Assembly (NCBI GenBank): GCA_964499245.1
Contig: CAZCIN010000001.1
Coordinates: forward strand, 5,106-69,105
DNA: 64,000 nucleotides
Reading direction: 5' to 3'
Source of the DNA: an uncultured Candidatus Saccharibacteria bacterium
GTDB lineage: Bacteria > Patescibacteriota > Saccharimonadia > Saccharimonadales > Saccharimonadaceae
Shown: positions 20,572-59,018 of the stretch, one piece after another
Layout: each line of letters begins with the position of its first letter
How positions within the stretch are numbered: the stretch's first letter is position 1
Program-made: the position numbers and the translations under genes
Notes under the pieces: generated by a model
Seen by the model: the letters and a program-made list of their open reading frames with translations, nothing else
What the model was told of the DNA's origin: nothing
Databases searched by the model: none

Positions 20572-20635
20572 ATAACCCTTTGCTCGGGCCGCTCCGGGGA
20601 GAAAGCCCAAGTCCTACTCCCTCATAAATGGTTAT
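20572..20635 (+). repeat. Dispersed hairpin repeat, copy a
   Basis: Core CTCGGGCCGCTCCGGGGAGAAAGCCCAAGTC in an ATAACC/GGTTAT stem. Confidence 0.75.
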
Positions 20636-20665
20636 CAGCTTCGCTTCAGCACCGATACGGTTTAA

Positions 20666-21409
20666 TTATTTCGACTCGGGGTCGTAGTTGGCGATACCCT
20701 CGGTGATGGCATTCGGAGCGATATTGAGGGTGGTGGCGATGGCAGCGGCGCAGGCCATATAGCCAATAACCGGCTCGCCGGTGAGGAAGCTGGCAACCGT
20801 GAAGGCCTGGCGACCAAAGCTGAGGCTGGCTTCGCAACCTTTGCGATAGAGCTTGGAATAATCAATCCGGAGATCAGAATCGGAAGACGCGCCATAGGTC
20901 AGAGTCTCAGTCTTGCCACGGAATTTGGCGAAATCGGCATAATGGGAATCGTCACGATTGAGGACAACGCTTTCTGGCTGCATCTCGAAAAGCGAAGATT
21001 GAGCGCCTAGATAGCCCGCAAGATCTTCGTCGGCGAGGCCGGTGGGTGCAAAATCAGTGAGGGCAGCGACATGGATTGGTAAGCCATAAAACGTATCAGC
21101 GGCAAGCGACTCGGCCGGCGCGGTGATGATAGCGTAGGTGACCTTGGCCTTCCAAGCGTCGTTCAAAAAGCGGTGCAAAACAGAGGCCTTGATGGCCTTC
21201 TCAGAAGCTAAAATCGCGGCCGGCTGCTTGGCGACGGCAAGAATTTCGTGGATATAGTGCGCCACGGTGACTTTGCCGGTAGTGCCGGTGATGCAAATAA
21301 GTTTAAGATCTCGCGCTGGGTGCCCATAGTAGGAGGCTAGAAGCTTCACCTTCGCGCGTTCGAGGCGAAACCGCTTTTTACCTCCAGAAAGTTTCGCAGT
21401 TTGTTCCAT
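20666..21409 (-). CDS. Mur-ligase central-domain protein (truncated MurE-like)
   Basis: RDLKLICITGTTGKVT, VVLNRDD, TYG motifs; no C-terminal ligase domain; start moved to MEQTAK. Confidence 0.75.
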   Translation of the reverse strand: MEQTAKLSGGKKRFRLERAKVKLLASYYGHPARDLKLICITGTTGKVTVAHYIHEILAVAKQPAAILASEKAIKASVLHRFLNDAWKAKVTYAIITAPAESLAADTFYGLPIHVAALTDFAPTGLADEDLAGYLGAQSSLFEMQPESVVLNRDDSHYADFAKFRGKTETLTYGASSDSDLRIDYSKLYRKGCEASLSFGRQAFTVASFLTGEPVIGYMACAAAIATTLNIAPNAITEGIANYDPESK

Positions 21410-21624
21410 AATTTGATTATAGCACAGATAATAGAGATTGACCCCAATTTGCGTGAATTGAGGGCGATTTGGCGATGAATTTGGCAATTTTCTCAAGAAA
21501 AAATATATTTTTACTCTATCACTTTTCTTAAAATGTGCTATAATGATGGTATTGTAAGTTTTACAATGCCCTTTTAATCTTTGGTGGATGTCGTAGCGCT
21601 CAGCGCGAAAATATCCACACATGT

Positions 21625-21701
21625 GTGCCCGTAGCTCAGCTGGATAGAGCGTTAGCTTGCGGAGCTAAAGGTCGTAGGTTCGAATCCTGTCGGGCATACC
21701 A
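21625..21701 (+). tRNA. tRNA-Arg(GCG)
   Basis: Cloverleaf, anticodon stem TTAGC/GCTAA around TTGCGGA, encoded CCA. Confidence 0.93.
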
Positions 21702-21745
21702 TAGAAAATACCTTACTTTCACGAGTAAGGTATTTTCTATGGTAT
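21696..21745. terminator. 22-bp perfect hairpin overlapping the tRNA 3' end
   Basis: ATACCATAGAAAATACCTTACT / AGTAAGGTATTTTCTATGGTAT. Confidence 0.75.
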
Positions 21746-21950
21746 ATTTCGTAGGGGTCGATATCGGAGCCATTTATGGCAAGGTTCGTTATCGAACGAA
21801 GTGAGATGCGGAGCGCAAGCAGAGCTTTCCTGTCGGGCATACTAAGACTACCATCTAGTCGTACTAGATAGCTTATATTTCCATATTAGCACAGATTTGT
21901 ATTTTTGTCAACCACTAGTTTTTTAGAAGAGGGTCTGATATAATAAGGTT

Positions 21951-23753
21951 ATGTTTGAGGGTACTACGGGTGGGCCGGACGGCATGACGGCGACGGAGAA
22001 GCGACAGCTGGAGATTATTCGATATTTTATGCCGCGGCTAACAGCGGAGGCGAACCGCATTGCGACTGAAAAAGCAAAAATGGCCGCGAAAGAAGCAGCG
22101 AAAAATGCAAAGACGGATGCGGAACGGGCAGCGGCGGCTCAGCAACAGACCGTGCAACTTTTGCCAGAACAGCCGGATCCGGCAGTGGCACGGCAGATGT
22201 TTCTCGCGGCACTGAGAGATGGACAGATTACTACGGCGGACGAAAACGAATACCTGCTGAGCTTGCCGTCGCAGTTAGAACGATATGGTGAACAGCGGAT
22301 TTTTGACGAAATCGCCGGGAGATTGCGTGATAAGCAGATCCTAGCAATAGTGACGGGTTTCACAACGAAAAATTGGCAGGACGTGAAGGCGGCAGACGTG
22401 AAAACATTCCTGAGCAATCCGCGACGAGGGCAGGAAGATTACCGAACGCCAGTAGGATTTGCGGATCTGAGACGAAAGTTCTTGTCGGAAATTCATCCGA
22501 TTGCTAGCCCGAAGCAATTTGACGACTATGTGCGTTCGATGAACGAGCTGGAAAACGCGCTTTACGGACCGCGATTTGCAGGGTTTAAGCAGTTTGAGAC
22601 TTTGCGCAAAGAAGCGATGGCGCTGGGGCAGGATTATGAGGCGAGCTTGGTAACAGAGACGGATCCATCGCTTGACCCGGCCCTTGGCGGGAGCGCAAGT
22701 GGAGAGACGCCAATGCTAGCAAAGGCACTGCACGAAACAACGTTGACGCCGATTGAGACAGAGGTGGGTGATCAGATTTTGAACCGGGCGACGATTGATG
22801 GTGATGTTTGGAAGCAGGGTGGTCAGGAATATTCACTTAGCATACCGAATTTGATCAGCGCAGGGCTAAATCCAGCCTATCATATTTTGGTGGCTAATCA
22901 GGAAATCTATCTATCAAATCTCTTTAATTTGACAAGCGATCAAATGGCGGCGATTGCTTATATCCCGACGACAGTAGGGGTGAAAGTACGGTCATTTTAT
23001 CGCGATAAAGCACAGGCACTGTGGCGATATTTGCCGGATTATGTCCGTGGGATTAACGGTGAAGGAATTGATATTTTTGGGAGTGGATTTGACGAGCGGT
23101 CGATTATTTTGCCGATTGCTTTGCAATCAGCGTTGAATCAGATTGAGCGATACCGAGGGATTGTGGATCTTTCCGGCACGAATCCGGATTTCCTATTCGC
23201 GGGGACAGCGATGGCGTATAATTCGCGCCAAGAATATCGCGAGGCGTTCCAGCGAGGGCTGATGCGGGGGGACTTCTACCGTGAAGTGTCGCCGACCGCG
23301 ATGAACGCGGAACAATCGTCGACAACCGAGCCGGGGCATCGCAAAGTGGCTCCACAGCTATTGTCGGTGGCGGAAAGCTTTGCACCAGATTTTGAGAGAT
23401 TGATTGCGAGATATTCAGTTTATTCGACTTTTGCGGGGCAGATTATGGGCGAGGGATATGTTTCGCACGACGCGCAGTATTATTGGCTATTTTCGACGGA
23501 TTATCGAGGACGAAGTTGGGTAGCAAATATTGAGACGAATGCGATGGTGACGTCGACGGGATGCCGGCAGGAGTGGCTGGCGCCGGTCGATATTACGACG
23601 CCGCTTTATGAGGCGCTGAGGCTGGCGGATGGTTATGGCGATCCAAGCGACACGCGGACGGGCAATTATATTTCGATGTGGAATAATTATCTTGCGAAAG
23701 TGCCACTGATTCAAAATTATACGGCGGTGGTGAAAGCAAGTTCAGAAAACTAG
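21951..23753 (+). CDS. Hypothetical 600-aa protein
   Basis: Long ORF with TGA-TATAAT 6 nt before ATG; no recognisable motif. Confidence 0.8.
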   Translation: MFEGTTGGPDGMTATEKRQLEIIRYFMPRLTAEANRIATEKAKMAAKEAAKNAKTDAERAAAAQQQTVQLLPEQPDPAVARQMFLAALRDGQITTADENEYLLSLPSQLERYGEQRIFDEIAGRLRDKQILAIVTGFTTKNWQDVKAADVKTFLSNPRRGQEDYRTPVGFADLRRKFLSEIHPIASPKQFDDYVRSMNELENALYGPRFAGFKQFETLRKEAMALGQDYEASLVTETDPSLDPALGGSASGETPMLAKALHETTLTPIETEVGDQILNRATIDGDVWKQGGQEYSLSIPNLISAGLNPAYHILVANQEIYLSNLFNLTSDQMAAIAYIPTTVGVKVRSFYRDKAQALWRYLPDYVRGINGEGIDIFGSGFDERSIILPIALQSALNQIERYRGIVDLSGTNPDFLFAGTAMAYNSRQEYREAFQRGLMRGDFYREVSPTAMNAEQSSTTEPGHRKVAPQLLSVAESFAPDFERLIARYSVYSTFAGQIMGEGYVSHDAQYYWLFSTDYRGRSWVANIETNAMVTSTGCRQEWLAPVDITTPLYEALRLADGYGDPSDTRTGNYISMWNNYLAKVPLIQNYTAVVKASSEN

Positions 23754-24491
23754 TTCTGCTAAATTGATGCCAGTAACTTTATAGAAACCTTTGAACTGAG
23801 GAGAGCGGTTGATTTCGATAATGACAAGTGAGCCGTCGTCAAGCACGGCTAGATCAACGCCGACGAAATCAAGCTCCGGGAATTTGGCCATGGCTCTCTT
23901 CACGAAGTCCATTTGCTCATCGGTGAGCTGATGTTCGCCGATGACTTTGACGCCCTGAGATTCAGTCTTGCTAGTGCGAGTCTCAGCAGTGCGGAAAACC
24001 TGACCGTTAAGATAGAAAACACGCATTTCTTGAGCAATGTTGACACGGCGCTGGATAATGTAGCTATCAAGATTAGCACCCTCGGGAATCTCAAAGTGAA
24101 CATCACGACAACGGCAGGAAATGCGCTTTTTAACGATCATTTTGCCGGGAATAAATTCTTGTTCCCTGGCGAGCCAAGTTTCGGGCATGAAATCTTTACC
24201 GAATTGATAAAACTGGCGCCATTTATCCTCGATATAAAAGTCTTCGACAGTGTGGACGTGGTCGATGGAATAACAATCGGGGTTGTCGTGGAAGAATTGA
24301 GTGGTGATTTCCTCAAGGCGGCTATCTAGGGTAGGGTCGGTGGGGTCGTTGAAGGGATCGCGGAAATAGACCTTGTCGAACTGCGGAAAAGTGGCAGGGA
24401 GTTCGTCGTTGTAATAGTAGATGGCGTCGACGTTTGGTTCCCAAAGCGGAAGGGCAAGGTCGGCGTGAGTGGTGAATAAGGCTGATTTCAT
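23742..24491 (-). CDS. ATP-grasp (RimK-like) ligase
   Basis: IVKKR, IIQRRV...EMRVF, FVGVDL...IIEINRSPQF motifs. Confidence 0.75.
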   Translation of the reverse strand: MKSALFTTHADLALPLWEPNVDAIYYYNDELPATFPQFDKVYFRDPFNDPTDPTLDSRLEEITTQFFHDNPDCYSIDHVHTVEDFYIEDKWRQFYQFGKDFMPETWLAREQEFIPGKMIVKKRISCRCRDVHFEIPEGANLDSYIIQRRVNIAQEMRVFYLNGQVFRTAETRTSKTESQGVKVIGEHQLTDEQMDFVKRAMAKFPELDFVGVDLAVLDDGSLVIIEINRSPQFKGFYKVTGINLAELVF

Positions 24492-24819
24492 AAGGATATT
24501 ATAACACATGCTTTATGGTGAATGGGGTATTGTGGTGGATGGCGGGCTTGCTCTATCGCCTCACTCGCAAATCCAAGCTCTTGACGGAACTTGGTAGCCG
24601 TGATAGGATAGAGGTAGGTTTATTGGCGGTTCCGTTTTAGCGGGATCGCTTTTGTGTAGATTCTAGTCCCAGTGAGACTATTCTCTAACACAGCACTAAG
24701 GCTTTTTATTTCTAGCGGTTGCACTGCATCTACCTTTCTCCCCTCATTAGCTTTTTAATTTACTCGTAGACGCTTCGCATAGCGCCCGCCATCCTTTTCA
24801 ATATTACCCTAGTTTATCA

Positions 24820-24915
24820 TCCTAGTCAATACTATTCAATATTATTATAATTTAGTCAAATATCGGGCCCCCTCAATAGTATAGCACAGATTGAGAGAAA
24901 ACTACAAGGGTAAGC
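24820..24915 (-). repeat. 96-bp inverted repeat, copy 2
   Basis: Reverse complement of 20016-20111; weaker similarity continues about 45 bp inward. Confidence 0.92.
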
Positions 24916-24974
24916 AATATTTTTATATGTTGTAGATTAATATAATCGACACAGCGCAGAGCAAATGATAAGCC

Positions 24975-25047
24975 CACACTGGCTTTTCTCGACCTTGCGC
25001 TCCAGGCCGCGCGGCCAAGTCTTTACGGTCTTCAAAAAGCCAGTGTG
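24975..25047 (+). repeat. Dispersed hairpin repeat, copy b
   Basis: Core CTCGACCTTGCGCTCCAGGCCGCGCGGCCAAGTC in a CACACTGGCTTTT/AAAAGCCAGTGTG stem. Confidence 0.85.
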
Positions 25048-25129
25048 AAACCTATCATCTTTCTAGTACAGCATATACCATTAAAATCCAAAATGGAGAC
25101 AGATCGGGGGGGCGATACTGTCTCCATTT

Positions 25130-25206
25130 TGGTGGCGGGAGTTGGATTTGAACCAACGACCTTTTGGTTATGAGCCAAACGAGCTACCAGGCTGCTCTAT
25201 CCCGCG
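25130..25206 (-). tRNA. Initiator tRNA-fMet(CAU)
   Basis: C1:C72 mismatch, A11-U24, anticodon CAT, encoded CCA; terminator hairpin at 25088-25132. Confidence 0.9.
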
Positions 25207-25306
25207 ACATGTGTTCATTATATCGCAAGACGCGAAAAAATGCAAGAGTTTTCTTGAAACAAAATTCAACCCCGCTTTGTGGGCGGGGCTGGTGGAACTA
25301 AAATAC

Positions 25307-26389
25307 TTAATAATCACCTCCAAACGTGGGAATTTTAGGCTCGTAATCAGCGGGAGGAGTAGGTATGGGATCCGGCGTAGGGACTGGAGTAGGTTCCGGG
25401 TTCTTAGGCATAGGAGTCGGAGTAGGTGCGGGCATGGGCTTGGGATAGTTATCGACGTCGATATCGATATCGTCATCATCACTAGGCCGCGTCACAAAGC
25501 GTTCTTCCGATTCGTAGCCTTCGGCACCATAGTTATAGTTGTAATAACCGTCTACGCCACTAACGCCATTGCTCTCATACTCGGCATAATCACCAGATGT
25601 ATAGAAACATAAGATGAATTCTCCATCCTCGATGCGAGGACGACTGCCATAAGCACGGCGATAGCACTCACTGGAACAAAACTCGATGCCTAAATTATCG
25701 GCAGCGGTAGTGATGTCCAGCTCACCAACGTGACGAACGTGCTGACGGTTGTCATCAATGGTAATAGTGATAACACCAGGCTCGTCTTCCGTGATAAGAT
25801 AAGTGCTGTTTGCAGTAATGTCGGCTTTGACTTCCCCTTTTTCATTCCGATAAAGCGGAATGGCATCCCAACAGATTGCGTAGACCGCGTCCGATTCTAA
25901 AGTGTAGCTACCGTCAAAATTGGGTTCGATGAGAATGTTATCATCCCGCACCGGCACCTGATAAAGCGTGAGATTCATGCTCTTCTCGGTATAGACCGGT
26001 TCCGAGGTTGTGTCCTCAAGCAGTTTGTCCTCATCGGACAGATAGCTGTCCTCGTATTTAGCTTCAGACGGTTCATTCTCGTCAGGCGGATAATCGTCTT
26101 CGTTCCGATTTACGGCGAAGCCGGAGACGGGCAGTTCAGAATCTTGCTGGTCCGCATTGCTGACGACTTCAGTTTTGTCAACATACTTCTCAGAAGTATG
26201 TTTGTTGAAGACGTACATCAAAAGAGAGCCTAACAAAAATATTACTGCGCCGACACAAAGACATGCTGCGACGATCGCCTTACCGCTAAGTTTGTCCGGT
26301 TTTTGGTTCATGTAATCAAACCGGCTGTCGCGAGTGTCCTGATTGTCCTGATTTACCTGTTCCTGGTTGTTGTTCTGTTCGTTTGCCAT
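25307..26389 (-). CDS. Hypothetical bitopic membrane protein with Pro/Thr-rich tail
   Basis: TM helix near the N-terminus, acidic extracellular part, PTP repeats; GGAGG RBS. Confidence 0.75.
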   Translation of the reverse strand: MANEQNNNQEQVNQDNQDTRDSRFDYMNQKPDKLSGKAIVAACLCVGAVIFLLGSLLMYVFNKHTSEKYVDKTEVVSNADQQDSELPVSGFAVNRNEDDYPPDENEPSEAKYEDSYLSDEDKLLEDTTSEPVYTEKSMNLTLYQVPVRDDNILIEPNFDGSYTLESDAVYAICWDAIPLYRNEKGEVKADITANSTYLITEDEPGVITITIDDNRQHVRHVGELDITTAADNLGIEFCSSECYRRAYGSRPRIEDGEFILCFYTSGDYAEYESNGVSGVDGYYNYNYGAEGYESEERFVTRPSDDDDIDIDVDNYPKPMPAPTPTPMPKNPEPTPVPTPDPIPTPPADYEPKIPTFGGDY

Positions 26390-26495
26390 AATAAATTCCC
26401 TCCAATTTTATATTTTAATTTGAAACGAAAGTTAACAGCTACACACAGGGGTTTTAAGCTTTAGTTCTTAATTTGCTTAACTTCCCCCATAGTTA

Positions 26496-26531
26496 TACTT
26501 CCATTGTAGCACAGATTGTCCAAAAAGTCAA
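26496..26531 (-). promoter_or_regulatory. Sigma70 promoter TTGACT-N17-TACAAT
   Basis: Read directly. Confidence 0.75.
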
Positions 26532-28330
26532 GAGTGTTTATGCTTATTTTGCAATTCTGGCAAAGATTTGGTGGAATTTTTTGAGATTTTGACAGTTTTT
26601 CGGGGATTTGACAAGGTTGACGAGTTTGAGTGGATCGTGGCATAGCTGGGTAGGAAAATATAGTATAACAGGGGTGGGAGAAGGTAGATGTGAAGAGCGT
26701 TGGGGAGGCCGGCGAAGAATTGCAGAGAGAGGAGATAGGCGGTGATAAGAGCGACGAGGAAGGGGAGATTTTGAGGGTTTTTGAGGGGCTTTGAGCGGAA
26801 GGCGAAATAGAGGGCGGCGAGGAGAAGGGCGACACCGAAAAGACCGGTCTCGAGGAGGAGGGAGATGGGCTGATTTTGGACGATTTCTTTGGGGCTGGGG
26901 TTATTCACGGGGTCGAAACGGTGCATGGCGACGCCGGCACCACCGAGACCAACGCCGAAGATCATGGTGGCTGGAGACTGAGACCAGGTGGCAAGGGCGG
27001 CGGAATTAAGGCCGAGACGAACATCGGTGGAATCGGCGACGTAACCATCAAATATGGGGGCAGGCAACTCGTCTTCAGATACGGTAACGCTCTCTGGACG
27101 CTCCCTGCGGGTGGCGTCCAGACCCGCGTTAGCCTGACCATCAGTACCTTCAGACAACCTCCCTGCCCCCTCATCGATGGTTGTGCTACCATCGTCCGGC
27201 TCGGTCTGACTATTTGTGCGAAAATCCAAGAAGCCGAGGGAAAGCTGGTGAATGGATTTAGTAACGGCGGAGGTGAAAGTCTCAGAAGTGGGGCCGAAAT
27301 GAGCGAAAGTTCCCTGTAAGCCGAGCGAAAGGAGGAAAGTGGCGACGGGAATAATAATGAGGGCGGGGCGGAAGGTGTGGCGACACAGGGTGAAGATAAT
27401 TAAAATAAGAAGGCCAAGGGCGTAGGAATAGATGGCGCCACGGGAAAAAGTGAAGAAAAGCGTAGTAGAAAATAAAATTGCACAGACGACAAGAGGGAGT
27501 TTTACGGAAGTTTTGCGCAGGTGTGGAAAAGTGGTTGTGGTTTGTTCGGCTCTTATATGTTCGGTTTTTGCGCGGTGTTCGGTTTTATTGGGGTGGGGTG
27601 TGGTTTCGCTGGTGGTTTGGCAGAGAAGGTAGAGAGCAAGAAGGGTGGGGGCGAGGAGGAGATTACCCATGAATTGCGGCTCGATGGCGAAGCCATTGGG
27701 ATGGGGGAAGCCGAAGGAGCGATAAGTGCAGCCGGCGCAGAGGAGAGTGGTTTCGCGGGAGAGGCCACAGGAATCGAGTATAGACTGGATAAAGCAAAAG
27801 AGGCATACCACAGCGGTGCTTACGAAGAAGGCCCCGAGGACCCAAATTTTGAGCTCTCGTGGGGGTTCTAGCCGGGGCGAGAGGCGGAGGATAGCAAAAA
27901 TGGCGAAAAAGAGGAGCCAGAGGATGCCGGCGGTGAGGATAGTGCGGAGGGGGTTGGCGGACCAGAAGACTGACAGGGTGGCATAGAGAGGAAAAAGCAA
28001 CCATAGTAGAAACTTTGTGACGTCTTTTCTCGAGCTGCGCTCCGGGGCGCGCGCCCGAGTCTTTATGCTCTCGAAAAGAGCCGCAAAGTTCCCTCTACTA
28101 ACTTTTTCCGCTTTGGGGCGCTGATCCAAGTCTTTACGGTCTCGAAAAAGCACCACAAAGTTGATGAAAGCAATAAGGTCGAAGAGGATGAGCCAGAGGA
28201 GCGGGAGGGAGAGCTCGAAATTCATGGAAGAATTGGCGCCGAGAGAGATGATGGGGTAATAGGAGAAAAAGAGGACGGCGGGGAGGGCGACAAGCAGGGC
28301 GAAATAGGCCATGCGGAAGAATTTAGACAT
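26528..28330 (-). CDS. O-antigen ligase/polymerase-like polytopic membrane protein with low-complexity insertions
   Basis: Many TM helices, PNGFAIEPQFMGN, TFSRGA, GVGLGG, LHIY motifs; start moved to MSKFF overlapping the upstream stop. Confidence 0.75.
   Translation of the reverse strand: MSKFFRMAYFALLVALPAVLFFSYYPIISLGANSSMNFELSLPLLWLILFDLIAFINFVVLFRDRKDLDQRPKAEKVSRGNFAALFESIKTRARAPERSSRKDVTKFLLWLLFPLYATLSVFWSANPLRTILTAGILWLLFFAIFAILRLSPRLEPPRELKIWVLGAFFVSTAVVCLFCFIQSILDSCGLSRETTLLCAGCTYRSFGFPHPNGFAIEPQFMGNLLLAPTLLALYLLCQTTSETTPHPNKTEHRAKTEHIRAEQTTTTFPHLRKTSVKLPLVVCAILFSTTLFFTFSRGAIYSYALGLLILIIFTLCRHTFRPALIIIPVATFLLSLGLQGTFAHFGPTSETFTSAVTKSIHQLSLGFLDFRTNSQTEPDDGSTTIDEGAGRLSEGTDGQANAGLDATRRERPESVTVSEDELPAPIFDGYVADSTDVRLGLNSAALATWSQSPATMIFGVGLGGAGVAMHRFDPVNNPSPKEIVQNQPISLLLETGLFGVALLLAALYFAFRSKPLKNPQNLPFLVALITAYLLSLQFFAGLPNALHIYLLPPLLYYIFLPSYATIHSNSSTLSNPRKTVKISKNSTKSLPELQNKHKHS
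28011..28162 (+). repeat. Dispersed hairpin repeat, copy c plus a partial second unit, in frame inside a CDS
   Basis: Core CTCGAGCTGCGCTCCGGGGCGCGCGCCCGAGTC; second CCAAGTCTTTACGGTCTCGAAAAAG. Confidence 0.8.
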
Positions 28331-29768
28331 TGGGGGCGTCCTCAGGGGCAGGGTCGGCGGCAGGTTCAGGGATGGGAGCGGGATTTTTGAGAGCTTGATC
28401 GATGAAAGCGGTGATTCCCTCGCGGAATTTGTTGACGTCGAACGGTGCGGCTGAGGCGGAGATTTTTTGACGGTCAAAATGATGGTCGGGGAATTCCTGA
28501 AGGGCGGTGACAAGTGAATCGACGGTTTGCTCGCGGAAGAAAAGGCCGTTTTCGCCGGGGTGCACAAAATCGCGGCTGCCACCGTCGGCGAAGGCAATCA
28601 CCGGGCAACCGGCGGCTAAAGCTTCGACGGGGGCGATACCGAAAGGCTCGAGACTTGGAAAAATGAAAGCGCGGGCATTTTGCAGGTGCTCGGCGAGCTG
28701 ATCGGAAGTGAGCCAAGGGAGAAATTCGATATGACTGGTGTCGCGGGCGGGGACGCTCATGGCGAGTTGTTGGAGTTTTTTGTGCTCGGGGCCGTCGCCA
28801 ATCACTTGCAGAGGGAGACCGAGGCGATTGCAAGCGGAGATAGCGAGATCGACGCGTTTCCAGGTAACCTGACGACAAGAGATGACAAAAGGATGATTTT
28901 GGGGCTGGCTGGAGTTAGAGTTATCCACAGAGTTTTGCACAGATTTATCCACAGATTTTGCGGAGTTTTCCACAGGTTTAACAGGGGTAGTGATAGATTT
29001 GGAGAATTTTTGGACGTCAACGGGCGGATAAATAATGGTGGCGTCGCGGTGATAGTATTTTTTGATCTGTTCGGCGGCGTAGCTAGAGATGGTGACGAAA
29101 TAATCCGGCTGCTGGGCAGCGGCGAAATCGGCTTTTCTAAGAGGTTTCACTAAGAGACGGAAAAAGAATTTAACGATAGGATTCAGGAAACCGAAGCCAG
29201 GATTTTGGAGATAGCGGTCGTAAGATTGCCAATAATACTGAGTGGGGACATGGCAATAACAGATATGGGTGGTGTGGGGCTGCATAGGGAGCAAGACTTC
29301 GTACTTCCCTTTCCGAGTGGCGGTGCGATAAGGCTTGGGCTGAGTGCGGACAGATTTGGCTTCGGCACCGGTAACAGAGATGACGAGGTCGTAATGGCTG
29401 AGGTCGAGATGGGAGAAATAATGCTGGCGCAGAGGGCCAAGAATGCGACGGAAAGTGGCGGGAAAAAGATTGAGCCAGCCGGTTTTGACGGTGGCGTCTT
29501 TGAACCAGTCGATGCGCTTTGGGCGATACTGAGAGGTATAGATGGGGGCGTCGGGATAGAGGTGGTGGAGCTCAAGAAGGACTTTTTCGGCACCGCCTTT
29601 TTCCGTTAGCCAATCACAAACGAGGGCAACAGTAGGGCGGGAGGGAGTGGTTGATTCACGGCGGTCAGAAGCAGAAGATTCTCCGGCTTCACCGGACGAA
29701 AAGGTTCCACGAACGGCGTCGCGCTGACCTTTTCTAGAATCTTCTGCTTTTGACCGGCTCATCAACAT
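28323..29768 (-). CDS. Glycosyltransferase family 4 (GT-B)
   Basis: GGAEKV, RQVTWKRVDL, EPFGIAPVEALAAG motifs. Confidence 0.9.
   Translation of the reverse strand: MLMSRSKAEDSRKGQRDAVRGTFSSGEAGESSASDRRESTTPSRPTVALVCDWLTEKGGAEKVLLELHHLYPDAPIYTSQYRPKRIDWFKDATVKTGWLNLFPATFRRILGPLRQHYFSHLDLSHYDLVISVTGAEAKSVRTQPKPYRTATRKGKYEVLLPMQPHTTHICYCHVPTQYYWQSYDRYLQNPGFGFLNPIVKFFFRLLVKPLRKADFAAAQQPDYFVTISSYAAEQIKKYYHRDATIIYPPVDVQKFSKSITTPVKPVENSAKSVDKSVQNSVDNSNSSQPQNHPFVISCRQVTWKRVDLAISACNRLGLPLQVIGDGPEHKKLQQLAMSVPARDTSHIEFLPWLTSDQLAEHLQNARAFIFPSLEPFGIAPVEALAAGCPVIAFADGGSRDFVHPGENGLFFREQTVDSLVTALQEFPDHHFDRQKISASAAPFDVNKFREGITAFIDQALKNPAPIPEPAADPAPEDAPNV
28921..28974 (+). promoter_or_regulatory. Cluster of DnaA-box sequences within the GT4 coding region
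   Basis: TTATCCACA at 28921 and 28945, TTTTGCACA at 28933, TTTTCCACA at 28966. Confidence 0.6.
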
Positions 29769-29818
29769 ACTCCCTCTCACCCTACTGTTGCTCTACATTG
29801 CGATTGATTAGCCATGAT

Positions 29819-31246
29819 CTATTTTGCACCTTTTCTTAGTAAAACAGCGCCGACGGTGCGAAAAAGGATGCGAAAGTCGAGCCAAAGACTCCAGTTCTGA
29901 ATGTAATAAATATCAAGGGCGCGACGTTCGGCAAAAGAGATGTCGCGGCGGCCGGAAACCTGGGCAAGACCAGTAAGGCCAGATTTGACCGAGAGAAGTA
30001 AGGAGCGGTCGCCATAATGACGGAGTTCGCCAGGGACGAGAGCACGGGGGCCGACTAAGGAAATATCACCACGAAGGACATTAAAGAGCTGTGGGAGCTC
30101 GTCAAGTGAGGTAGCGCGCAAGAAACGGCCAACTTTGGTAACGCGGGGGTCGTTTTTGATCTGATCGCCATCGGCGCGGTATTTCTTAATGAGATTCGGC
30201 TTGCCCATTTTGGTGAAGGCTTCCTCGGGAGAAATACCGCAATATTCGGGGTACATGGAGCGGAATTTATAGATTTTGAAGCGGCGATTATAGCGAGAGA
30301 GGCGAGTTTCGGCGTAGATGGCAGGGGCGTGAGGGTCGGCGATTTTCTCGGCGAGCCAGATGATAGCCATAGGGATAGCAGCGAGCAGAACTAGGATTGA
30401 GCCGAGAATGAGATCGGTACAACGTTTGACAAAACGAGCGCTACCAGCGAGAGGAGTGACAGGAACAAAGATAGTGGGGGTGCTACCGATGAGCTCGATT
30501 TCGCCCATTTGCGAAGAAAGATCGGCGGTCGACGGCACGTAATAATAGAGAAGATGGTGGTTGAGAGCCTGGCGATAGACATATTCGGAACTCTTGGAAT
30601 CGGTCTGGAAAATGACGTCGGGGCGAGTCTTTTTGAGGGCTTCTTTGAGCGAAGAATATTGCTTTTTGCGGAGGTCGGCGGGGATGTATTTGGCGCCGGC
30701 GACGATGCCAGCGAGCGAAAAGCCGGATTCGGGATAGGCAGCGATGTAATTGGCGATGGACTCGGTACTTTTATTATTACCGATGACGATGGCGCGAAGG
30801 GCAGTTTTACGACTGTGTTTGAGGGCGAAATTGCGAATAAAACGGACGAGGCCGCGGAAAAGACAGAGGAACAGGAAGCAGGCGAAGGCGGCATAGATGG
30901 CCATGATACGGACTGGGAAGAGATCGAGTTCGAGGAAGAAATCGATGGAAATGATAGTCATCATACCAACAAGCGAGGCAAAAAAGAGGCGGGCGACCTC
31001 AGTCCAGCGGCTGCTGCGCAGGAAGATGGATTTTTTGTAGAGGCCGAAGCAGGCGAGAATGATGACGTAAATTGGGATGAGAGAGAGCATGGTGAGAACG
31101 AAACGGCCGGGATCGGCGGTGAAGTAGAAAGGGCGCTGGTCGAGATGGGTGCGCATGAAATAGGCCGCCAAAAAGGAGAGGACAATAGAAAGAGCGTCCC
31201 CTAAAATGAGGAAGACGTGGAAGACCACACCGAAATCCCGTTTCAT
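29819..31246 (-). CDS. Polyprenyl glycosylphosphotransferase (initiating sugar transferase)
   Basis: [45 protein letters not shown]; start moved to MKRDFG. Confidence 0.92.
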
Positions 31247-31276
31247 AGGGTAATTATAGCATAAATAGATATATAG

Positions 31277-31349
31277 GGCTAGTAACCCTTTGCTCGGACC
31301 GCTCCGGGCCGCTTGGCCAAGTCGATATCCTCGCAAAGGGTTTCTAGCC
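31277..31349 (+). repeat. Dispersed hairpin repeat, copy d
   Basis: Core CTCGGACCGCTCCGGGCCGCTTGGCCAAGTC in an AACCCTTTGC/GCAAAGGGTT stem. Confidence 0.8.
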
Positions 31350-31399
31350 TTAAGATCGTTTTTGCATAATTCCTCTATAAAATGGGGTATAATTGGGGT

Positions 31400-32401
31400 A
31401 TGAAGATTTTAGTGACTGGGGGGACGGGATATATTGGTTCGCACACGGTGGTGGAGTTGATTCAGGCGGGGCATGAGGTGGAAATTCTTGATAATCTCTA
31501 TAATTCAAAGCGTGATGTTCTTTCGAAAATTGCGGAGATTACTGGGGTGGAACTGAAATTCTACGAAGTGGATCTGAGAGATAAGTCGGCGCTTGAGAAA
31601 GTGATGCAGGATGGCGGATACGAGGCGGTGATACATTTTGCGGGGCTGAAAGCGGTGGCGGAATCGGTGGAGAAACCGCTCACATACTACGAGAACAACG
31701 TGGGTGGGACGGTGAATTTGCTGGAAGCGATGGAAAAATTTGGGGTGAAAAAGTTGATTTTCTCGAGTTCGGCGACGGTTTATGGCAATCAGAAAGCTCC
31801 GTTTGTGGAAACAATGGAGACGGGGCGGAATATGACCAACCCTTACGGGCAGACGAAATACGTGATCGAGGAGATTATTAAAGACCTCTGTATAGCGGAT
31901 GCAGAATTTGAAGCGACGATTCTGCGGTATTTCAATCCAATCGGAGCGCACGAGTCGGGGCTAATTGGTGAGGAGCCAAATGGCATTCCGAATAATCTGA
32001 TGCCGATTATCATGAAAGTGGTGACGGGGGAGATGGAAGAGTTGCTGGTGTGCGGCGATGATTATCCAACGGCGGATGGGAGCGCGGAGCGGGATTATAT
32101 TCATGTGATGGATCTAGCGCAGGGGCACGTGGCGGCGCTTGAAAAAATGCAACCGGGGGCAACGGTTTATAACCTGGGAACAGGGCGGGGGGTGAGTGTG
32201 CTTAAGATAGTGGAGGCGTTTGAGAAAGTGAGTGGTTCCCCGCTGGCACACAGAATAGTGGGGCGGAGAGCAGGCGATCTCGCGGTGGTGTACGCGGATC
32301 CGAGTAAAGCGGAGCGAGAATTGGGCTGGAAAGCAACGCGGACGATTGAAGACGCGTTCCGGGATACGCTCAAATTCCTAAAACTTGACAAAAAAGCATA
32401 A
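31400..32401 (+). CDS. galE: UDP-glucose 4-epimerase
   Basis: GGTGYIGSH, SSSATVYG, YGQTK, LRYFNPIGAH. Confidence 0.95.
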   Translation: MKILVTGGTGYIGSHTVVELIQAGHEVEILDNLYNSKRDVLSKIAEITGVELKFYEVDLRDKSALEKVMQDGGYEAVIHFAGLKAVAESVEKPLTYYENNVGGTVNLLEAMEKFGVKKLIFSSSATVYGNQKAPFVETMETGRNMTNPYGQTKYVIEEIIKDLCIADAEFEATILRYFNPIGAHESGLIGEEPNGIPNNLMPIIMKVVTGEMEELLVCGDDYPTADGSAERDYIHVMDLAQGHVAALEKMQPGATVYNLGTGRGVSVLKIVEAFEKVSGSPLAHRIVGRRAGDLAVVYADPSKAERELGWKATRTIEDAFRDTLKFLKLDKKA

Positions 32402-32452
32402 GTGTGATAGGATGGGGGTAGTTAACCGCTTCGAGACGGAGCGGACGGGATT

Positions 32453-34045: not shown

Positions 34046-34106
34046 ATATACTATTATACCATATTTAGTATAATTCTTAGAAGTCGTTTAGCATAGGTGG
34101 TGGAAA

Positions 34107-34130
34107 ATGCCCCTACCGAAGTAGGGGCAT
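34107..34130 (-). terminator. Terminator of the orphan gene
   Basis: ATGCCCCTAC-CGAA-GTAGGGGCAT preceded by AAAA. Confidence 0.7.
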
Positions 34131-34157
34131 AATCGCTTTTGGAGCACAAACCAAATC

Positions 34158-49428: not shown

Positions 49429-49436
49429 AGTATCTA

Positions 49437-51143: not shown

Positions 51144-51157
51144 CTAATGATATTATA

Positions 51158-52954: not shown

Positions 52955-52964
52955 AGGCTCCTTT

Positions 52965-53537: not shown

Positions 53538-53591
53538 AAAGTTCTCCTATGTATTATTATAGCGGAAAAACTGGTAAGTACAAGACAAAAA

Positions 53592-53933: not shown

Positions 53934-54014
53934 ATAAAATTTCCAAAATTGTTATGACTTTAGGCAAATAGGTGTTATAATGGTTATTATAAATTAGGGA
54001 AAAAAGCAAGTCAA

Positions 54015-55826
54015 ATGGGAAATACGACCATCGATGGCCTGAAGGTGCGTTCGGCAAAAAAACCGGCTCCGCGCGTGAAAAAAAGCGCAGGGGCGACGCT
54101 TGATTTGGCGAAAAAACCGGCGGCAAAGCCGAAACCGGCAGTGGCTAAAGCACCGAAGAAGCCAGTCAGTTCACGTGCAGTGGTGAAAGATTTTGCTGAG
54201 CAGGACGATAGCGATTGGTCGGATTTGCTGGGGCAGATGAGCAATGACAGGACCGAAGAGAAAAGACCAGTTCGTAATGATGAGATTTTTGATGAAGAGC
54301 TAGACAACGACCCACCCGATAATGATTGGGATGATGATAAAGTCGATGCCCTTGAAGATGGGAAGACATACGAAAAAGATGACGATTGGATGGCAGACTG
54401 GGGCGGTGAAGGCGATGGCCTATTAGATGATGATTTTAGTTTTGTTGATGAGGACGAGAAACCGCGGCGAAAGACAAATAATAGTAAGAAAAAATTAAAG
54501 CATGGCCGTGGTAAGCACTGGGGGCGTAAAATTGCAATCATTGTGGTTGGGCTAGTGCTAGTAGGCGGAATAGTAATATTCTTGTGGGGCGACGCTTTGA
54601 TTTCGCGTTTGACGGGCGGGCGCTCGGGGCTTTGGAGTACTTTCTCGGCGATGATAGCTGACACGGTACCATTTGAAGAAGACGCTCAGGGGCGTACCAA
54701 TGTATTGGTTTTTGGCACAGAGGGTTACAACATGAACGGTGATGTGGGCGACGGTCAACATGACGGCTCACAACTGACGGATTCTATTATGGTAATCAGT
54801 TTTGACCAGGATACAAAAGATGTAGCACTGATTAGTCTTCCGCGGGATTTGAAGGTGTCGCGTGCTTGTTATGCTGGGAAAATTAATGAGGTTTATTCTT
54901 GCCATAATGATAATGGTAGTAATGAGCAAGCCGGCGCGGAGACTTTGGCAAGACAAGTAGGTGAAGTACTGGGAATTGATATTCAATACTGGGTGCATGT
55001 CAACTGGGGATCGCTAGTGCAAATTGTGGATAATCTAGGCGGGATTACGGTGACACTAGATGAGGATATTAACGATGTCAGCTATACCGGGGCAGTCATT
55101 AAGGCCGGGGTGCCAGTGACGCTCAACGGTGATGCGGCGTCAGGTTTGGCACGGGCGAGACATGGCACGATAGGTGGAGATTTCACGCGTGGTAATACTC
55201 AACAAAAAATTGTGATCGCGATTGTGCAGAAAGTGTTGGAATCGCAACTGGGCTGGGGACAGGCGCTCAATCTTTTAAATATCCTAGGTGATAACTTGCG
55301 GACAAATCTGGCAGCGGAAAACTTTAAGTCAGGATTTGTGATGATCTCGGGCTTTGATATAAATAATATCCGACAAGTACCGCTGATGGATTATAACAAT
55401 GATATTTATTACCTGTCGACTGCGAATATTAATAATATTTCCTTTGTGTTGCCGGCGCTAGGTGAAGGCAATTATGATGACATTCAGGCTTATGTGCGAC
55501 AGATGCTAAATTCTGATCCGACAATACGAGAGGGAGCGACTATTGCAGTGCTGAATGCGACTGACGAGGTTGGTGTAGCGGGGGCGGAACGCAACCGCCT
55601 GACAGAAAAAGGCTATAATGTTGTAGAGGTGGGGGATGCACCGAATGAAAGTTGTCAAGAAAAGTATTGTGTATTCGTGACTAACGACTCCAAACCAGCT
55701 ACTAAGGCAGCTCTGGAGCAGGCTTATGGCGTTACGGCACAACCATTTAATGATAGTTTACCCTGGACGAACGCTGACATTATCGTAGTGATTGGGGCGA
55801 CAGATGAAGAAGCAACTGCAGAATAA
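54015..55826 (+). CDS. LCP (LytR-CpsA-Psr) family glycopolymer transferase with LytR_C domain
   Basis: TDSIMV, ISLPRD, KINEVY, LARAR, RGNTQQ; C-terminal VLNAT...AG. Confidence 0.9.
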   Translation: MGNTTIDGLKVRSAKKPAPRVKKSAGATLDLAKKPAAKPKPAVAKAPKKPVSSRAVVKDFAEQDDSDWSDLLGQMSNDRTEEKRPVRNDEIFDEELDNDPPDNDWDDDKVDALEDGKTYEKDDDWMADWGGEGDGLLDDDFSFVDEDEKPRRKTNNSKKKLKHGRGKHWGRKIAIIVVGLVLVGGIVIFLWGDALISRLTGGRSGLWSTFSAMIADTVPFEEDAQGRTNVLVFGTEGYNMNGDVGDGQHDGSQLTDSIMVISFDQDTKDVALISLPRDLKVSRACYAGKINEVYSCHNDNGSNEQAGAETLARQVGEVLGIDIQYWVHVNWGSLVQIVDNLGGITVTLDEDINDVSYTGAVIKAGVPVTLNGDAASGLARARHGTIGGDFTRGNTQQKIVIAIVQKVLESQLGWGQALNLLNILGDNLRTNLAAENFKSGFVMISGFDINNIRQVPLMDYNNDIYYLSTANINNISFVLPALGEGNYDDIQAYVRQMLNSDPTIREGATIAVLNATDEVGVAGAERNRLTEKGYNVVEVGDAPNESCQEKYCVFVTNDSKPATKAALEQAYGVTAQPFNDSLPWTNADIIVVIGATDEEATAE

Positions 55827-57312
55827 AATCAAAGATGAGTTTAAGGCTATGCGGGGGAGCTTGGTGATTTTTAAGGAGTGGAGGTGGCTCCTAGCGATAA
55901 TGACAGTGCTACTGGTGGCATACTTGGCGCTAATGCGGGCAAATTTCTACTACCTAGACGACCAAGGGAGGATGCTTGATGGCCATATGGGATGGATGGG
56001 GTTTAGCCGGTATACGACAACTTTGGCGGCTGGTGTGATGCAGATGGGCTCATATATGGCTGATTTGTCACCGCTAACGACGTTATTAGCTATTATACTG
56101 ATGGCGATGGCGGGACTGATTATTATTTATACAATCAAAGTAAAGATTTTTGAGAAAGAGATTAAGTGGTGGGATGTAATGATCGTAGCCATCATGGGAG
56201 TGACGCCATATTTTGCGGAGTGTATGTCGTACAAATTTGACACGCCATTTATGGCTTTGTCGGTACTAGCGAGCGTGATGCCGTTTGTATTCTATAAAGA
56301 TTCCAAGCTAGGATTTTATGGTACTGCAGTAATTGGGACGATGGTAATGTGCACAACTTATCAGGCGTCATCAGGGATTTTTCCGATGATGGTGATGGTG
56401 GTGGCTGCAGCGGAATGGGCGAACGGGAGAAAATGGAAGGACTTGTGGAAGTTTGTGCTAGGGTCGGGCTTGGTGTATTTGGCGACGGCAGTAGTATTTA
56501 AGGAATTTTTGATGATTCCCCAGTCGCTTTATGTATCGAACGAAGTGCTGGGGCTAGGTGATTTGTTACCGGGGATAATGAATAATCTGCGAGAATATTA
56601 TAGTCTTGTGATAAGTGATTCGCGGTGGCTATGGCTAGTAATCGGCGGAGCGATAATCATAGAGTTTGTGATTGTTTACACTGTGAAAGCGAAAGGTAAT
56701 AAACTAGCAGCGGGGGCAACAGCGCTACTAGTGGTGGCACTGATGGGGCTAATGGCGTTTGGCCTATACATCGTGCTGGTGGCGCCACTAACAGCGATGC
56801 GTGGGATGTACGGAATTGGCGTAGCAATGACACTACTCGCGGTGATGATTAGCGGGATGGCGGAGCGATGGATCTTGGAATTACCGGCGATAGTTCTAGC
56901 TTATAACTTTATTATTTTTACGACTACTTATGGAAATATGTTAGCAGTGCAAGACGCGGAAACAAAATTCCGAGCGGAAGCTCTAGCGATGGACTTGGCG
57001 AATCTAGAAATTATGCAGACAGATAAACCGAAATTTGTAAAAATCTATGGCGGGATTGGACCAGCGAGAGCAATCCAACAATGGACAGATAAAACTGGCT
57101 CGGGTGCTTTGATGCGACTAATACCAGTGCAGATGCACGGGGACGGTTGGACTTGGGGACAGATGTATTTCTTCAACCAGCTGGGATTAAAAACCGCAGT
57201 GATGGTGGGACAGGAAGATATAGAAATTGGAGACGACTGGGAAAAGTCAATTAGTAACTTATATCACGACGTCTACACAAAGAATAATCAAATAGTGATA
57301 TATATTAAATAG
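55792..57312 (+). CDS. GtrII-like glucosyltransferase (GT-C membrane protein)
   Basis: YYLDD, CMSYKFD, CTTYQAS motifs. Confidence 0.75.
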   Translation: MGRQMKKQLQNKIKDEFKAMRGSLVIFKEWRWLLAIMTVLLVAYLALMRANFYYLDDQGRMLDGHMGWMGFSRYTTTLAAGVMQMGSYMADLSPLTTLLAIILMAMAGLIIIYTIKVKIFEKEIKWWDVMIVAIMGVTPYFAECMSYKFDTPFMALSVLASVMPFVFYKDSKLGFYGTAVIGTMVMCTTYQASSGIFPMMVMVVAAAEWANGRKWKDLWKFVLGSGLVYLATAVVFKEFLMIPQSLYVSNEVLGLGDLLPGIMNNLREYYSLVISDSRWLWLVIGGAIIIEFVIVYTVKAKGNKLAAGATALLVVALMGLMAFGLYIVLVAPLTAMRGMYGIGVAMTLLAVMISGMAERWILELPAIVLAYNFIIFTTTYGNMLAVQDAETKFRAEALAMDLANLEIMQTDKPKFVKIYGGIGPARAIQQWTDKTGSGALMRLIPVQMHGDGWTWGQMYFFNQLGLKTAVMVGQEDIEIGDDWEKSISNLYHDVYTKNNQIVIYIK

Positions 57313-57766
57313 CTTTCTTAGTAATGAGGAGTTGGCGCTCGCGACCTTCACCTTCGGAGTGAGTTTCGATGTCGGAATAATCCTGAGCAACTTTATGAAC
57401 AACGCGACGATCGGCAGCGTTGAGGTTGAGGACCTTAGTCTGACCAGTGGCACGAACTTCGCGAATCCAATCTTCGGCCTGCTCGGCAATGCGATCTGCA
57501 CGTTGACGCTTATAATCAGCAACATCAACACTCACACGGGTAACTTCAGCACCGCGGCCGGCAAGTGCCATGGAGACAATATGTTGGAGAGCGCGGAGAT
57601 TATTGGCTTCTTTACCAATTAGTAGTGAGTTCATAGAGGTAGACGGGATGCTAAGCTGGATGACCTCATCATCAATAGTGGAATCGATGGCGACGTTGAT
57701 ACCAAAGAATGATAATAAATCCTCTAGATATTTAGTAGCGAAACGAATTGATTCATCTTTATTCAT
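57305..57766 (-). CDS. jag: Jag/KhpB RNA-binding protein (KH plus R3H)
   Basis: LLIGKEA, VDVADYK, DRRVVH, SEGEG; follows yidC. Confidence 0.88.
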   Translation of the reverse strand: MNKDESIRFATKYLEDLLSFFGINVAIDSTIDDEVIQLSIPSTSMNSLLIGKEANNLRALQHIVSMALAGRGAEVTRVSVDVADYKRQRADRIAEQAEDWIREVRATGQTKVLNLNAADRRVVHKVAQDYSDIETHSEGEGRERQLLITKKAI

Positions 57767-57768
57767 AA

Positions 57769-58872
57769 TTAACTCCTTTTCTTTTTAGTGCCCTTCCCGG
57801 CGGAAATGTGAGTGACGTGGACGCCGGCACCATCGGCATTTTTGGAATTTTTATTTTTGACCCAGCGACCAGTTTTGGTGGAGTCGCTGACAACTTGGGC
57901 TTCTTCAATATTTTTGAGTTCTTTAATAAGGCGCTTATCGGCGGAAATTTCCATCTCGTCGGTCTTTTTATTAAGGAGATATTTCTGCTGGATGCCGGTG
58001 AGAATATTACTAATACAATAATAGAAGACAAGTGCGCCGGGGAGATTAATCATGATCATAAACATCATGAGTGGCATAATGAAAGACATTTGGCCGGTCA
58101 TGGCTTGGCTGAGATCGGCTTGATCAGGTTCCTGACCATTGGCGGCTTCACGCATAAGCTGGCGGAAAGTTTTGCTATTCTTGGATTTCTTGGATGGCAA
58201 CTGCTGACGGGAAATCCAGTACTGAGTAAAGGCGGAAGCAACCGCGAATAATAGCATAATAATGGCAGAGAGTGAGCCAAAGCCTGGGCGTGGGTCGAGA
58301 TCAACTACCCCAAAAAGTTTGGGGTGGAATTTATATTCGGGAGCGGTAAGTTTGTTCGCGGCATCTTGATCTCCGGATTCCTCGGCGGCCTTTTTGGCTT
58401 CGTTATAAGTGTTAAGGTCGGCAAGATATTCGTCTTGATATTGAATAACTTCATCAATACGGCCAATCTGATTGACGCCGGGATAGGCGCGAATACTAAG
58501 ATTGTCCGACGGAGTAGGCATCACCATGACACGAACAGCGGTATAGAGAGCGATGAAGATCGGGAGCTGAATGATTATGGTGAGCATGGAGCGGAAAGGT
58601 TTGATATTGTGGCGCTTGTAGAGATCCATCATCTGTAAAGACTCAAGCTGGCGATTACCATTGCAATTCTTTTTGATCTCGGCGAGTTCAGGCTGAATTT
58701 TGCGCATAAGGCGGGTTTGGTGCATTTGGCGTTTAACTAGCGGCCAGAGACAAATTTTAATCAGGACAGTAAAAAGAATAATGGCGAGACCAAAGTCGCC
58801 AACGAACCCATAAATGATGAATAAAACATTTGTGATTGGACGAACAATCAACAGGTCAATTAACTCAAACAT
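57769..58872 (-). CDS. yidC: Membrane protein insertase
   Basis: DFGLAIILFT, IQPEL, LPIFIALY, GALVFYY. Confidence 0.93.
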   Translation of the reverse strand: MFELIDLLIVRPITNVLFIIYGFVGDFGLAIILFTVLIKICLWPLVKRQMHQTRLMRKIQPELAEIKKNCNGNRQLESLQMMDLYKRHNIKPFRSMLTIIIQLPIFIALYTAVRVMVMPTPSDNLSIRAYPGVNQIGRIDEVIQYQDEYLADLNTYNEAKKAAEESGDQDAANKLTAPEYKFHPKLFGVVDLDPRPGFGSLSAIIMLLFAVASAFTQYWISRQQLPSKKSKNSKTFRQLMREAANGQEPDQADLSQAMTGQMSFIMPLMMFMIMINLPGALVFYYCISNILTGIQQKYLLNKKTDEMEISADKRLIKELKNIEEAQVVSDSTKTGRWVKNKNSKNADGAGVHVTHISAGKGTKKKRS

Positions 58873-58929
58873 ATAGTCATTATATCACAAGAGGTAGTTG
58901 TAGGCAATTCACCCCGATATAGACAGATG

Positions 58930-59018
58930 GAGGCTTTACGCTAAGCTTTTCTCGACCTAGCGCTCCAGGCCGCGCGGCCAAGTCTTTACGGTCTTCGAAA
59001 AACTTAACATAAAGCCTC
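58930..59018 (+). repeat. Dispersed hairpin repeat, copy e
   Basis: Core CTCGACCTAGCGCTCCAGGCCGCGCGGCCAAGTCTTTACGGTCTTC, nearly identical to copy b, but in a different stem (GAGGCTTTA/TAAAGCCTC). Confidence 0.85.

Follow-up and report, generated by a model that had tools for sequence, protein, structure and literature searches.

A dispersed family of imperfect hairpins with an invariant core and free stems in Saccharibacteria, other Patescibacteria and Bifidobacterium

Rickettsia palindromic elements (RPE) are small (~100–150 bp) palindromic repeats from the reduced genomes of host-dependent organisms, for which no transposase is known; their insertions lie in intergenic DNA and, in frame, in housekeeping genes that are unrelated to one another (PMC10969869, PMC2996958). 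Here we describe a family of dispersed hairpins, first noticed in a 64,000-nt stretch of DNA from an uncultured Candidatus Saccharibacteria bacterium (GenBank assembly GCA_964499245.1, contig CAZCIN010000001.1, forward-strand positions 5,106 to 69,105), hereafter the window. Saccharibacteria have tiny, gene-dense genomes thought to hold few mobile elements. With a probability that we put at about 60%, the hairpins are small imperfect-palindrome selfish repeats acting at the DNA level, like RPE, with features of repetitive extragenic palindromic (REP) elements and of the ends of IS200/IS605 insertion sequences.

The hairpins range from ~70 to 130 nt (median 97 nt, quartiles 87–116), and their conserved part is an almost invariant, asymmetric apical core of ~45 nt: CUC / P2 / CGCUCC / P3-GCUN / AAGUCUUA / P2' / UUCG. 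The outer stem, P1, has at least 12 bp and often at least 30 bp, and is free in sequence. An internal loop (CUC / UUC) separates it from P2, a stem of 5 bp (GGGCC/GGCCC or GGGAG/CUCCC), above which lies an asymmetric invariant loop whose 5' side reads (C)GCUCC and whose 3' side reads AAGUCUUA. The apical stem, P3 (GGSC/GSCC), is closed by a GCUN loop.

In the window, a pattern search with the core GCTCCRGG-N8-CCRAGTC gave five exact matches (0 mismatches), all on the + strand, and a sixth with 2 mismatches, at 28110, which is a 3'-partial copy just downstream of copy 3. A covariance model (R1) trained on 37 copies from other genomes only, with no window copies, was applied, filters off, to both strands of the entire window; it scored the five copies at 37–57 bits (E 7e-8 to 1.5e-13) and found no copies on the − strand, the remaining weak matches being plain hairpins. 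Copy 1 (20564..20643, +; subfamily B; R1 36.9 bits, E 6.8e-8, and fold) has an intact 5' core with a degenerate P3 loop and 3' half, and lies between a Mur-ligase-like gene (20666–21622, −; Pfam) and tRNA-Arg(CCT) (20453–20529, −). Copy 2 (24975..25047, +; subfamily A; R1 50.7 bits, RNA fold z −4.2) has an outer stem of 13 bp (CACACTGGCTTTT/AAAAAGCCAGTGTG) and is placed 83 bp from tRNA-Met (25130–25206, −), upstream of an ATP-grasp gene (23742–24509, −). Copy 3 (28011..28090, +; subfamily A; R1 40.9 bits) lies in frame within a gene for a Wzy_C (O-antigen-ligase-like) membrane protein (26528..28330, −; Pfam), where its − strand reading translates as NFAALFESIKTRARAPERSSRKDVTKF. The partial copy (28100..28162, +; R1 14.4 bits, model match 28095–28157) stands in tandem to it in the same reading frame (NFVVLFRDRKDLDQRPKAEKVSRG), with a degenerate 5' core, and the insertion as a whole sits in the loop following the second predicted membrane helix. 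Copy 4 (31277..31349, +; subfamily B; R1 56.8 bits) separates a divergent sugar-transferase gene (29819–31246, −) from the gene at 31382–32401 (+), which we call galE by its own sequence without a Pfam run. Copy 5 (58930..59018, +; subfamily A; R1 46.8 bits) lies between the divergent genes yidC (57769–58872, −) and rnpA (59080–59418, +), 808 bp upstream of dnaA.

Subfamily A (24975, 28011 and 58930) has the form CTTTTCTCGAsC ... GTCTTTAyGsTCTtCGAAAA with a GCGC loop; subfamily B (20572 and 31277) has GCTArTAACCCTTTGCTCGG in common, copies 1 and 4 sharing the 5' arm GCTArTAACCCTTTGC. The initial sequence-only reading, which had proposed five hairpins with one core and one orientation, gave the sites and contexts of all five correctly: copies 1 and 2 follow genes (Mur-ligase-like and tRNA-Met), copy 3 is intragenic, and copies 4 and 5 lie between divergent genes. 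The motif as it was written there is slightly too strict for copies 1 and 3, the core GCTCCRGG-N8-CCRAGTC being the form exact in 5/5 copies, and the common + strand orientation extends to five full copies and one partial copy. Separately, a near-perfect 36-nt AT-rich palindrome at 21703–21738, right after tRNA-Arg(GCG), matched R1 weakly on both strands, through nothing but its stem, and is likely to be a terminator-like, bidirectional hairpin that does not belong to the family.

The stems covary. In a model-fitted alignment of 115 copies, standard pairs filled 90.1% of cells, compared with 28–54% when partners were slid, and cells with double changes numbered 656, compared with 205 ± 13 in shuffles. 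Compensatory changes were found at 12/12 P1 pairs, 5/5 P2 pairs and one P3 pair, and an independent MAFFT/RNAalifold run gave the same picture. The alignment-free comparison was as clear, the two 30-nt flanks of one copy forming a duplex of −28.1 kcal/mol on average and flanks taken from different copies one of −11.3. A conserved asymmetric core with covarying stems, as first proposed, is therefore borne out by the double changes and the pairing. The closing stems had also been called unrelated in sequence, which is right for the family at large, the outer 20 nt being 27% identical between copies (the random level), and wrong within subfamilies, where stems are related (copies 1 and 4, copy 3 and L196, copy 5 and L023); copy 3 and L196 have diverged outer stems in common, as do copy 5 and L023. 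The core is ~100% conserved, both at orthologous sites and from one phylum to another. The same hairpin architecture also occurs with a second, related core variant, aCTCAAGGsCGkTmGsCCrAGCyTAc (L079:7844-7912, L048:6562-6631, L061:3990-4056, and the TGT genes of L003 and L079), sometimes at the same gene site as the main type.

To survey the family, we searched species-representative genomes with a degenerate pattern and obtained at least 114 loci. Among the matches listed there are more than 110 further copies outside the window, nearly all in metagenome-assembled genomes (MAGs) of Candidatus Saccharibacteria, Nanosyncoccus, Paceibacterota, Kaiserbacteria and other Patescibacteria from ruminant, rodent, other gut or environmental samples; also among the matches listed are ~10 Bifidobacterium species, mostly from New World primates. 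Four matches outside the candidate phyla radiation (L006, L022, L050 and L078) lacked the stems and were set aside as chance matches. An exact 25-mer of copy 2 had no match in the species-representative genomes, so that the degenerate pattern was needed. The repeat had been taken as unannotated, and the collections agree: over 20400–31500 no Rfam family was matched at gathering score or at E<=10, only tRNAs and noise; the plasmid, phage and IMG/VR collections held no family copies; and full-text searches of the literature turned up no such element in Saccharibacteria/TM7, nor did a narrow search on hairpins and repetitive elements in Bifidobacterium. The window belongs to a Saccharibacteria genome from rat gut, and the closest genome among those compared is the mouse-gut MAG MGBC122299 (DnaA 93% identical). 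Outside the window, that MAG was the only one of 185,579 species genomes in which the GCGC-loop subfamily was found; it has the subfamily at three loci, all non-orthologous to the window copies. Density is very uneven, with 5–6 copies in the 64-kb window compared with 2 in 1.36 Mb around dnaA of 76 related genomes, and decayed and partial copies occur in the family.

Many copies lie inside genes. For 46/124 copies (~37%) the reading frame is open for at least 240 nt on both sides; this claim leaves out Bifidobacterium, where stop codons are rare at 60–68% GC and open reading frame calls are unreliable. The core is stop-free in four of its six frames, at least three of these four are in use, and intragenic copies occur in both orientations relative to the host reading frame. 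Host genes include those for isoleucyl-tRNA synthetase (IleRS), a translational GTPase, QueA, TGT, a P-type ATPase and an ABC transporter. If translated, in-frame copies would add loop residues to the predicted protein, and insertion that can be read in any frame looks tolerated rather than designed. Between genes, the nusG–rplK spacer holds the element in three Saccharibacteria genomes and one Paceibacterota genome (L041, L079, L094 and L111), in both orientations relative to the genes.

Comparison of orthologous sites showed that, over the times in which strains and species diverge, copies come and go, flip and multiply in tandem. Copy 4 is absent from a related rat-gut strain (run X9), in which 31265–31398 is replaced by 26 nt and the −10 box of the 31382–32401 gene is kept. 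Copy 5 is absent from MGBC122299, where the yidC–rnpA spacer (L115) measures 35 bp, compared with 175 bp in the window (58885–59059). Wzy_C orthologues of at least 62% identity carry 1–3 tandem copies in the same loop, in three frames (ESIKTWPRGPERSS, CEGIRLGLAPRSG and FEDRKDLATRPGALG), and those of 56% identity or less carry zero. At the QueA site, L003 has a copy while L043 and L081 have none, and the QueA gene of L007 holds a 9-nt remnant that matches an element arm. In the GTPase gene, L002 and L084 have reverse-complement copies at the same codon position (...SGALRGASPSL... and ...EVARLGLAPRS...). Six genomes have the TGT site filled, with type I (antisense), type II (sense) and variant-core copies among them, and MGBC122299 has it empty; in the TGT insertion of L043 the left flank mirrors the conserved host codons EQY of the right side. 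Sites at TGT, GTPase, the nusG–rplK spacer and Wzy persist in many genomes. Any signal resembling a target-site duplication (TSD) was at control level. Empty and filled sites in relatives (copy 4, copy 5, QueA, TGT and Wzy), together with the flips at GTPase and TGT, bear out the proposal of a mobile repeat. As a separate observation, a ~190-bp segment at 19676–19867 (within an 86-aa open reading frame, 19655–19915, with no Pfam match) recurs at 74–77% identity in MGBC122299 (L195:2271-2462 and L196:929-1118), the L196 copy lying 25 nt from an element copy.

Orientation follows base composition. Among 94 copies from Patescibacteria, 58 have the + form on the strand that is G-rich locally and 10 have it on the other (|skew|>0.05), or 46 and 7 (|skew|>0.1), whereas co-orientation with surrounding genes is even (37 vs 40), in agreement with the orientation regardless of gene direction that had been reported for the window. 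Where skew and gene direction conflict, 15 copies follow skew and 0 follow genes. The skew rule holds for all four copies of MGBC122299 and for both of those at dnaA loci, and four of the five window copies sit among − strand genes, yet on the + (G-rich) strand. Because the core itself is slightly C-rich by direct count, the link is not a compositional artefact, and the correlation of orientation with skew is solid. That skew marks the leading strand in this clade is something we infer from general knowledge (PMC7111523).

The dnaA gene (59826–61181) stands in a classic jag–yidC / rnpA–dnaA–dnaN setting, flanked by clusters of the DnaA box TTTTCCACA (four at 59644–59775 and four at 61182–61316), with positive GC skew on both sides. 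The sole change of skew sign in the window, at ~14 kb, is the boundary of a conjugative island; as a candidate origin of replication (oriC) it was ruled out, the DnaA-box clusters lying instead at 59.6–61.3 kb. Of 47 related dnaA loci that include 10 kb to either side, 30 had positive skew on both flanks, 8 had negative skew on both and 8 showed the canonical flip; the right-minus-left step was +0.1 to +0.2 nearly everywhere (L115–L190). Two other compositional features were seen. Across 25300–53900, ~28 kb of − strand envelope-polysaccharide genes (Wzy, GT4, sugar transferase and, by motifs only, probable ABC-transporter genes), the template (+) strand is strongly G- and A-rich, with GC skew of +0.2 to +0.35, the reverse of the usual case, in which the coding strand is purine-rich. 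Within the GT4 glycosyltransferase gene (28323–29780), the stretch 28921–28974 holds the perfect DnaA-box-like TTATCCACA twice at 24-nt spacing, plus TTTTCCACA; since related strains lack exactly 24 nt there, this is probably a short coding tandem repeat.

A linked HUH/Y1 transposase or integrase gene, to which the sequence-only reading had looked, was not found in the window or in the 114 loci; the sole integrase of the window belongs to the unrelated conjugative island. Searches (tblastn) with RAYT (REP-associated tyrosine transposase) and IS608 TnpA queries, a weak test, returned nothing in the window or the 114 loci. What looked like the largest cluster of neighbouring genes was an artefact of element-encoded peptides linking unrelated proteins, and a protein search with an element-encoded peptide gave one candidate, which was uninformative. 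A homologue of the IS200/IS605-type Y1 transposase does occur at L155:6919-7326 (tblastn E 7e-19 with an IS608 TnpA query), in an element-free Saccharibacteria dnaA locus.

The hairpins had been put down as structured in single-stranded DNA or in RNA, and of the two the DNA side is favoured by the skew-linked orientation, the flips, the coding insertions and a mismatch asymmetry that ignores the mRNA strand, along with the greater stability of the − strand DNA hairpin in the window copies. An element acting in mRNA would follow gene direction, which these copies do not. Were it instead a structured RNA (a cis-regulatory element, a terminator or stabiliser, a small RNA or a ribozyme), P1 would just pair and the core would bind a protein or catalyse. 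The textbook-looking covariation around a conserved asymmetric internal loop and the several copies at 5' or 3' untranslated positions would suit such an RNA, as would an RNA-seq assembly (X28) that contains one copy from another (foreign) locus, although this shows only that some copies are transcribed. We nevertheless hold an RNA to be very improbable: there is no Rfam match even at E<=10, orientation tracks skew independently of flanking or host genes, 37% of copies lie within reading frames in both orientations, and orthologous copies are flipped relative to the mRNA. Mismatches on the + form are A.C in 107 cases and G.T in 38, an asymmetry that is the same whether the host mRNA is sense, antisense or absent. 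A terminator was rejected for window copies 1–5, which have no T-run after the hairpin. The tie to skew, together with a core invariant across phyla, would also be expected of a host-beneficial, replication-polar DNA signal, kept by selection, with a folded core to which a conserved factor of replication or repair binds, for example in lagging-strand priming or primosome loading, in fork processing or in orienting the chromosome as Chi or KOPS do. Same-site persistence at TGT, GTPase, the nusG–rplK spacer and Wzy and the missing transposase point the same way. We consider this unlikely given the extremely patchy abundance, the absence of copies 4 and 5 from close relatives, the decayed and partial copies and the apparent tolerance of any-frame insertion in coding loops.

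Spread might also need no enzyme, if replication template switching or snap-back synthesis let a nascent strand copy the exposed hairpin of another fork and extend the stem by inverted copying of the flank, giving an orientation fixed by the fork, unrelated yet complementary stems and no TSD. Outer stems that are random between copies and complementary within each, the lack of a TSD, tandem partial copies that start inside the core (window 28100–28162, and L019), the mirrored EQY codons at the L043 TGT site and the variable copy number at the Wzy site all fit. Such copying leaves unaccounted for the identity, across phyla, of a ~45-nt core with paired and unpaired parts and the crossing between Patescibacteria and Bifidobacterium, and mirrored flanks are seen at one or two sites, which could be coincidence; we judge it quite improbable. 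In the selfish-repeat reading that we prefer, the element would act as folded single-stranded DNA exposed during replication, and a structure-specific enzyme, encoded elsewhere and acting in trans, would recognise its near-invariant unpaired core; our leading guess is a transposase of the Y1/HUH type or some other recombinase that binds hairpins. This enzyme, alone or together with the element, would have passed between the two groups, Patescibacteria and Bifidobacterium. Outer stems that differ in sequence and still pair may have arisen through copying of the flank in inverted form (of which the L043 TGT site gives a hint), by insertion into pre-existing mini-palindromes or by compensatory drift. 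Several results weigh against selfish repeats. A core ~100% conserved across phyla is not what pure selfish decay predicts, unless copies are renewed or homogenised, and whole-hairpin copy-and-paste does not account for near-random outer stems. Neither the window nor the 114 element loci contain a HUH or RAYT gene, and the recurrent neighbours in those loci are all housekeeping genes. By DNA parameters the − strand hairpin is the more stable in 5/5 window copies, so that the strand that folds better is the C-rich one, whereas the other would be expected to lie exposed as the template of the lagging strand. Finally, neither the window nor 38/47 related loci show a switch of skew at dnaA, and skew as a guide to replication direction is therefore uncertain here.

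These repeats matter for genomes as small as those of Saccharibacteria, whose essential genes (aminoacyl-tRNA synthetases, the translational GTPase, QueA and TGT) are colonised in frame. Surface-polysaccharide proteins would be inflated and diversified between strains, as in the Wzy loop with its 1–3 copies. The repeat also breaks metagenome assemblies, contigs having jumped between copies. Across phyla it offers a marker of DNA exchange with Bifidobacterium, and the 45-nt core can serve as bait for finding the enzyme, an experiment made feasible by cultivable carriers such as Bifidobacterium biavatii DSM 23969, B. goeldii or B. hapali. More tentatively, and on balance doubtfully, the family could reflect an unrecognised single-stranded-DNA-hairpin mobility system, in which the ~45-nt core is recognised, TSD-free insertion generates or requires an inverted copy of the flank, movement is coupled to the fork, and exchange has linked the episymbiotic Saccharibacteria/Patescibacteria with gut Bifidobacterium as their potential hosts. 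The element would in that case be a marker of DNA traffic between host and epibiont.

The conjugative or mobilisable island occupies 1–14200 and holds no hairpin copies. It encodes an amidoligase (1375–2403), a Replic_Relax protein (3097–4080), a VirD4/TraD-like coupling ATPase (4073–6283), an MT-A70 methylase (6489–7409), a sigma-70 r4 protein (12265–12837) and, at its edge, a short tyrosine integrase (13574–14176) that is the only tyrosine recombinase of the window. Its GC content is 53–57% in 1–8 kb, compared with ~47% elsewhere, and its GC skew is inverted. Just outside the island, 14472–15410 and 16019–17038 are paralogous lipoprotein-like genes with near-identical signal peptides and similar C-terminal halves; a Pfam scan of 14472–15410, the one paralogue scanned, found no domain.

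Several described classes of element resemble the family in part. REP elements and their bacterial interspersed mosaic elements (BIMEs), served by RAYT (TnpA-REP), and the ends of IS200/IS605 are likewise imperfect hairpins thought to act as folded single-stranded DNA, with no terminal inverted repeats of the transposon type and no TSD. The present hairpins lack a GTAG-type 5' tetranucleotide, the conserved 5' element being CUCG inside the stem-loop; they measure 70–130 nt (median 97) rather than the 20–40 nt of REP; and they are not extragenic, 46/124 lying deep in long reading frames, nor do they form alternating clusters in BIME style. No RAYT, TnpA or TnpB gene was found to adjoin any copy. 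IS200/IS605 elements show strand bias relative to replication, and with the ends of these elements and of palindrome-associated transposable elements (PATE) the family shares the missing TSD and, with skew taken as a proxy for replication, the biased orientation; it differs in that no tnpA/tnpB is flanked by hairpins, the sole tnpA homologue being in the element-free L155. Integron attC sites are also defined by structure, variable in sequence, conserved in their asymmetry (extrahelical features) and used as one folded strand. In attC, however, the boxes (R''/L''...L'/R'; RYYYAAC ... GTTRRRY) are conserved at the base and the centre varies, whereas here the apex is conserved and the base varies; AAC/GTT base boxes, a cassette array and intI are all lacking, and copies are dispersed and intragenic. 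[quoted passage not shown] It thus fails the defining tests of REP, MITE, attC and IS200/IS605-end membership, and no Rfam family matched it; an invariant apex with free stems, no TSD and skew-linked orientation is not a combination that fits any described element class.

RPE, together with related coding palindromic repeats from Wolbachia and Methanocaldococcus jannaschii, are likewise small palindromes that lie in frame in many unrelated genes and in intergenic DNA, with no known transposase. The likeness is one of description, no kinship in sequence being expected; the hairpins may be called a family of the RPE kind, and assigning them to the RPE family is not justified. They occur in other host phyla; their DNA is read in three frames and so gives no single conserved peptide; and only the apical core is conserved, common across phyla, while the stems vary and orientation follows GC skew.

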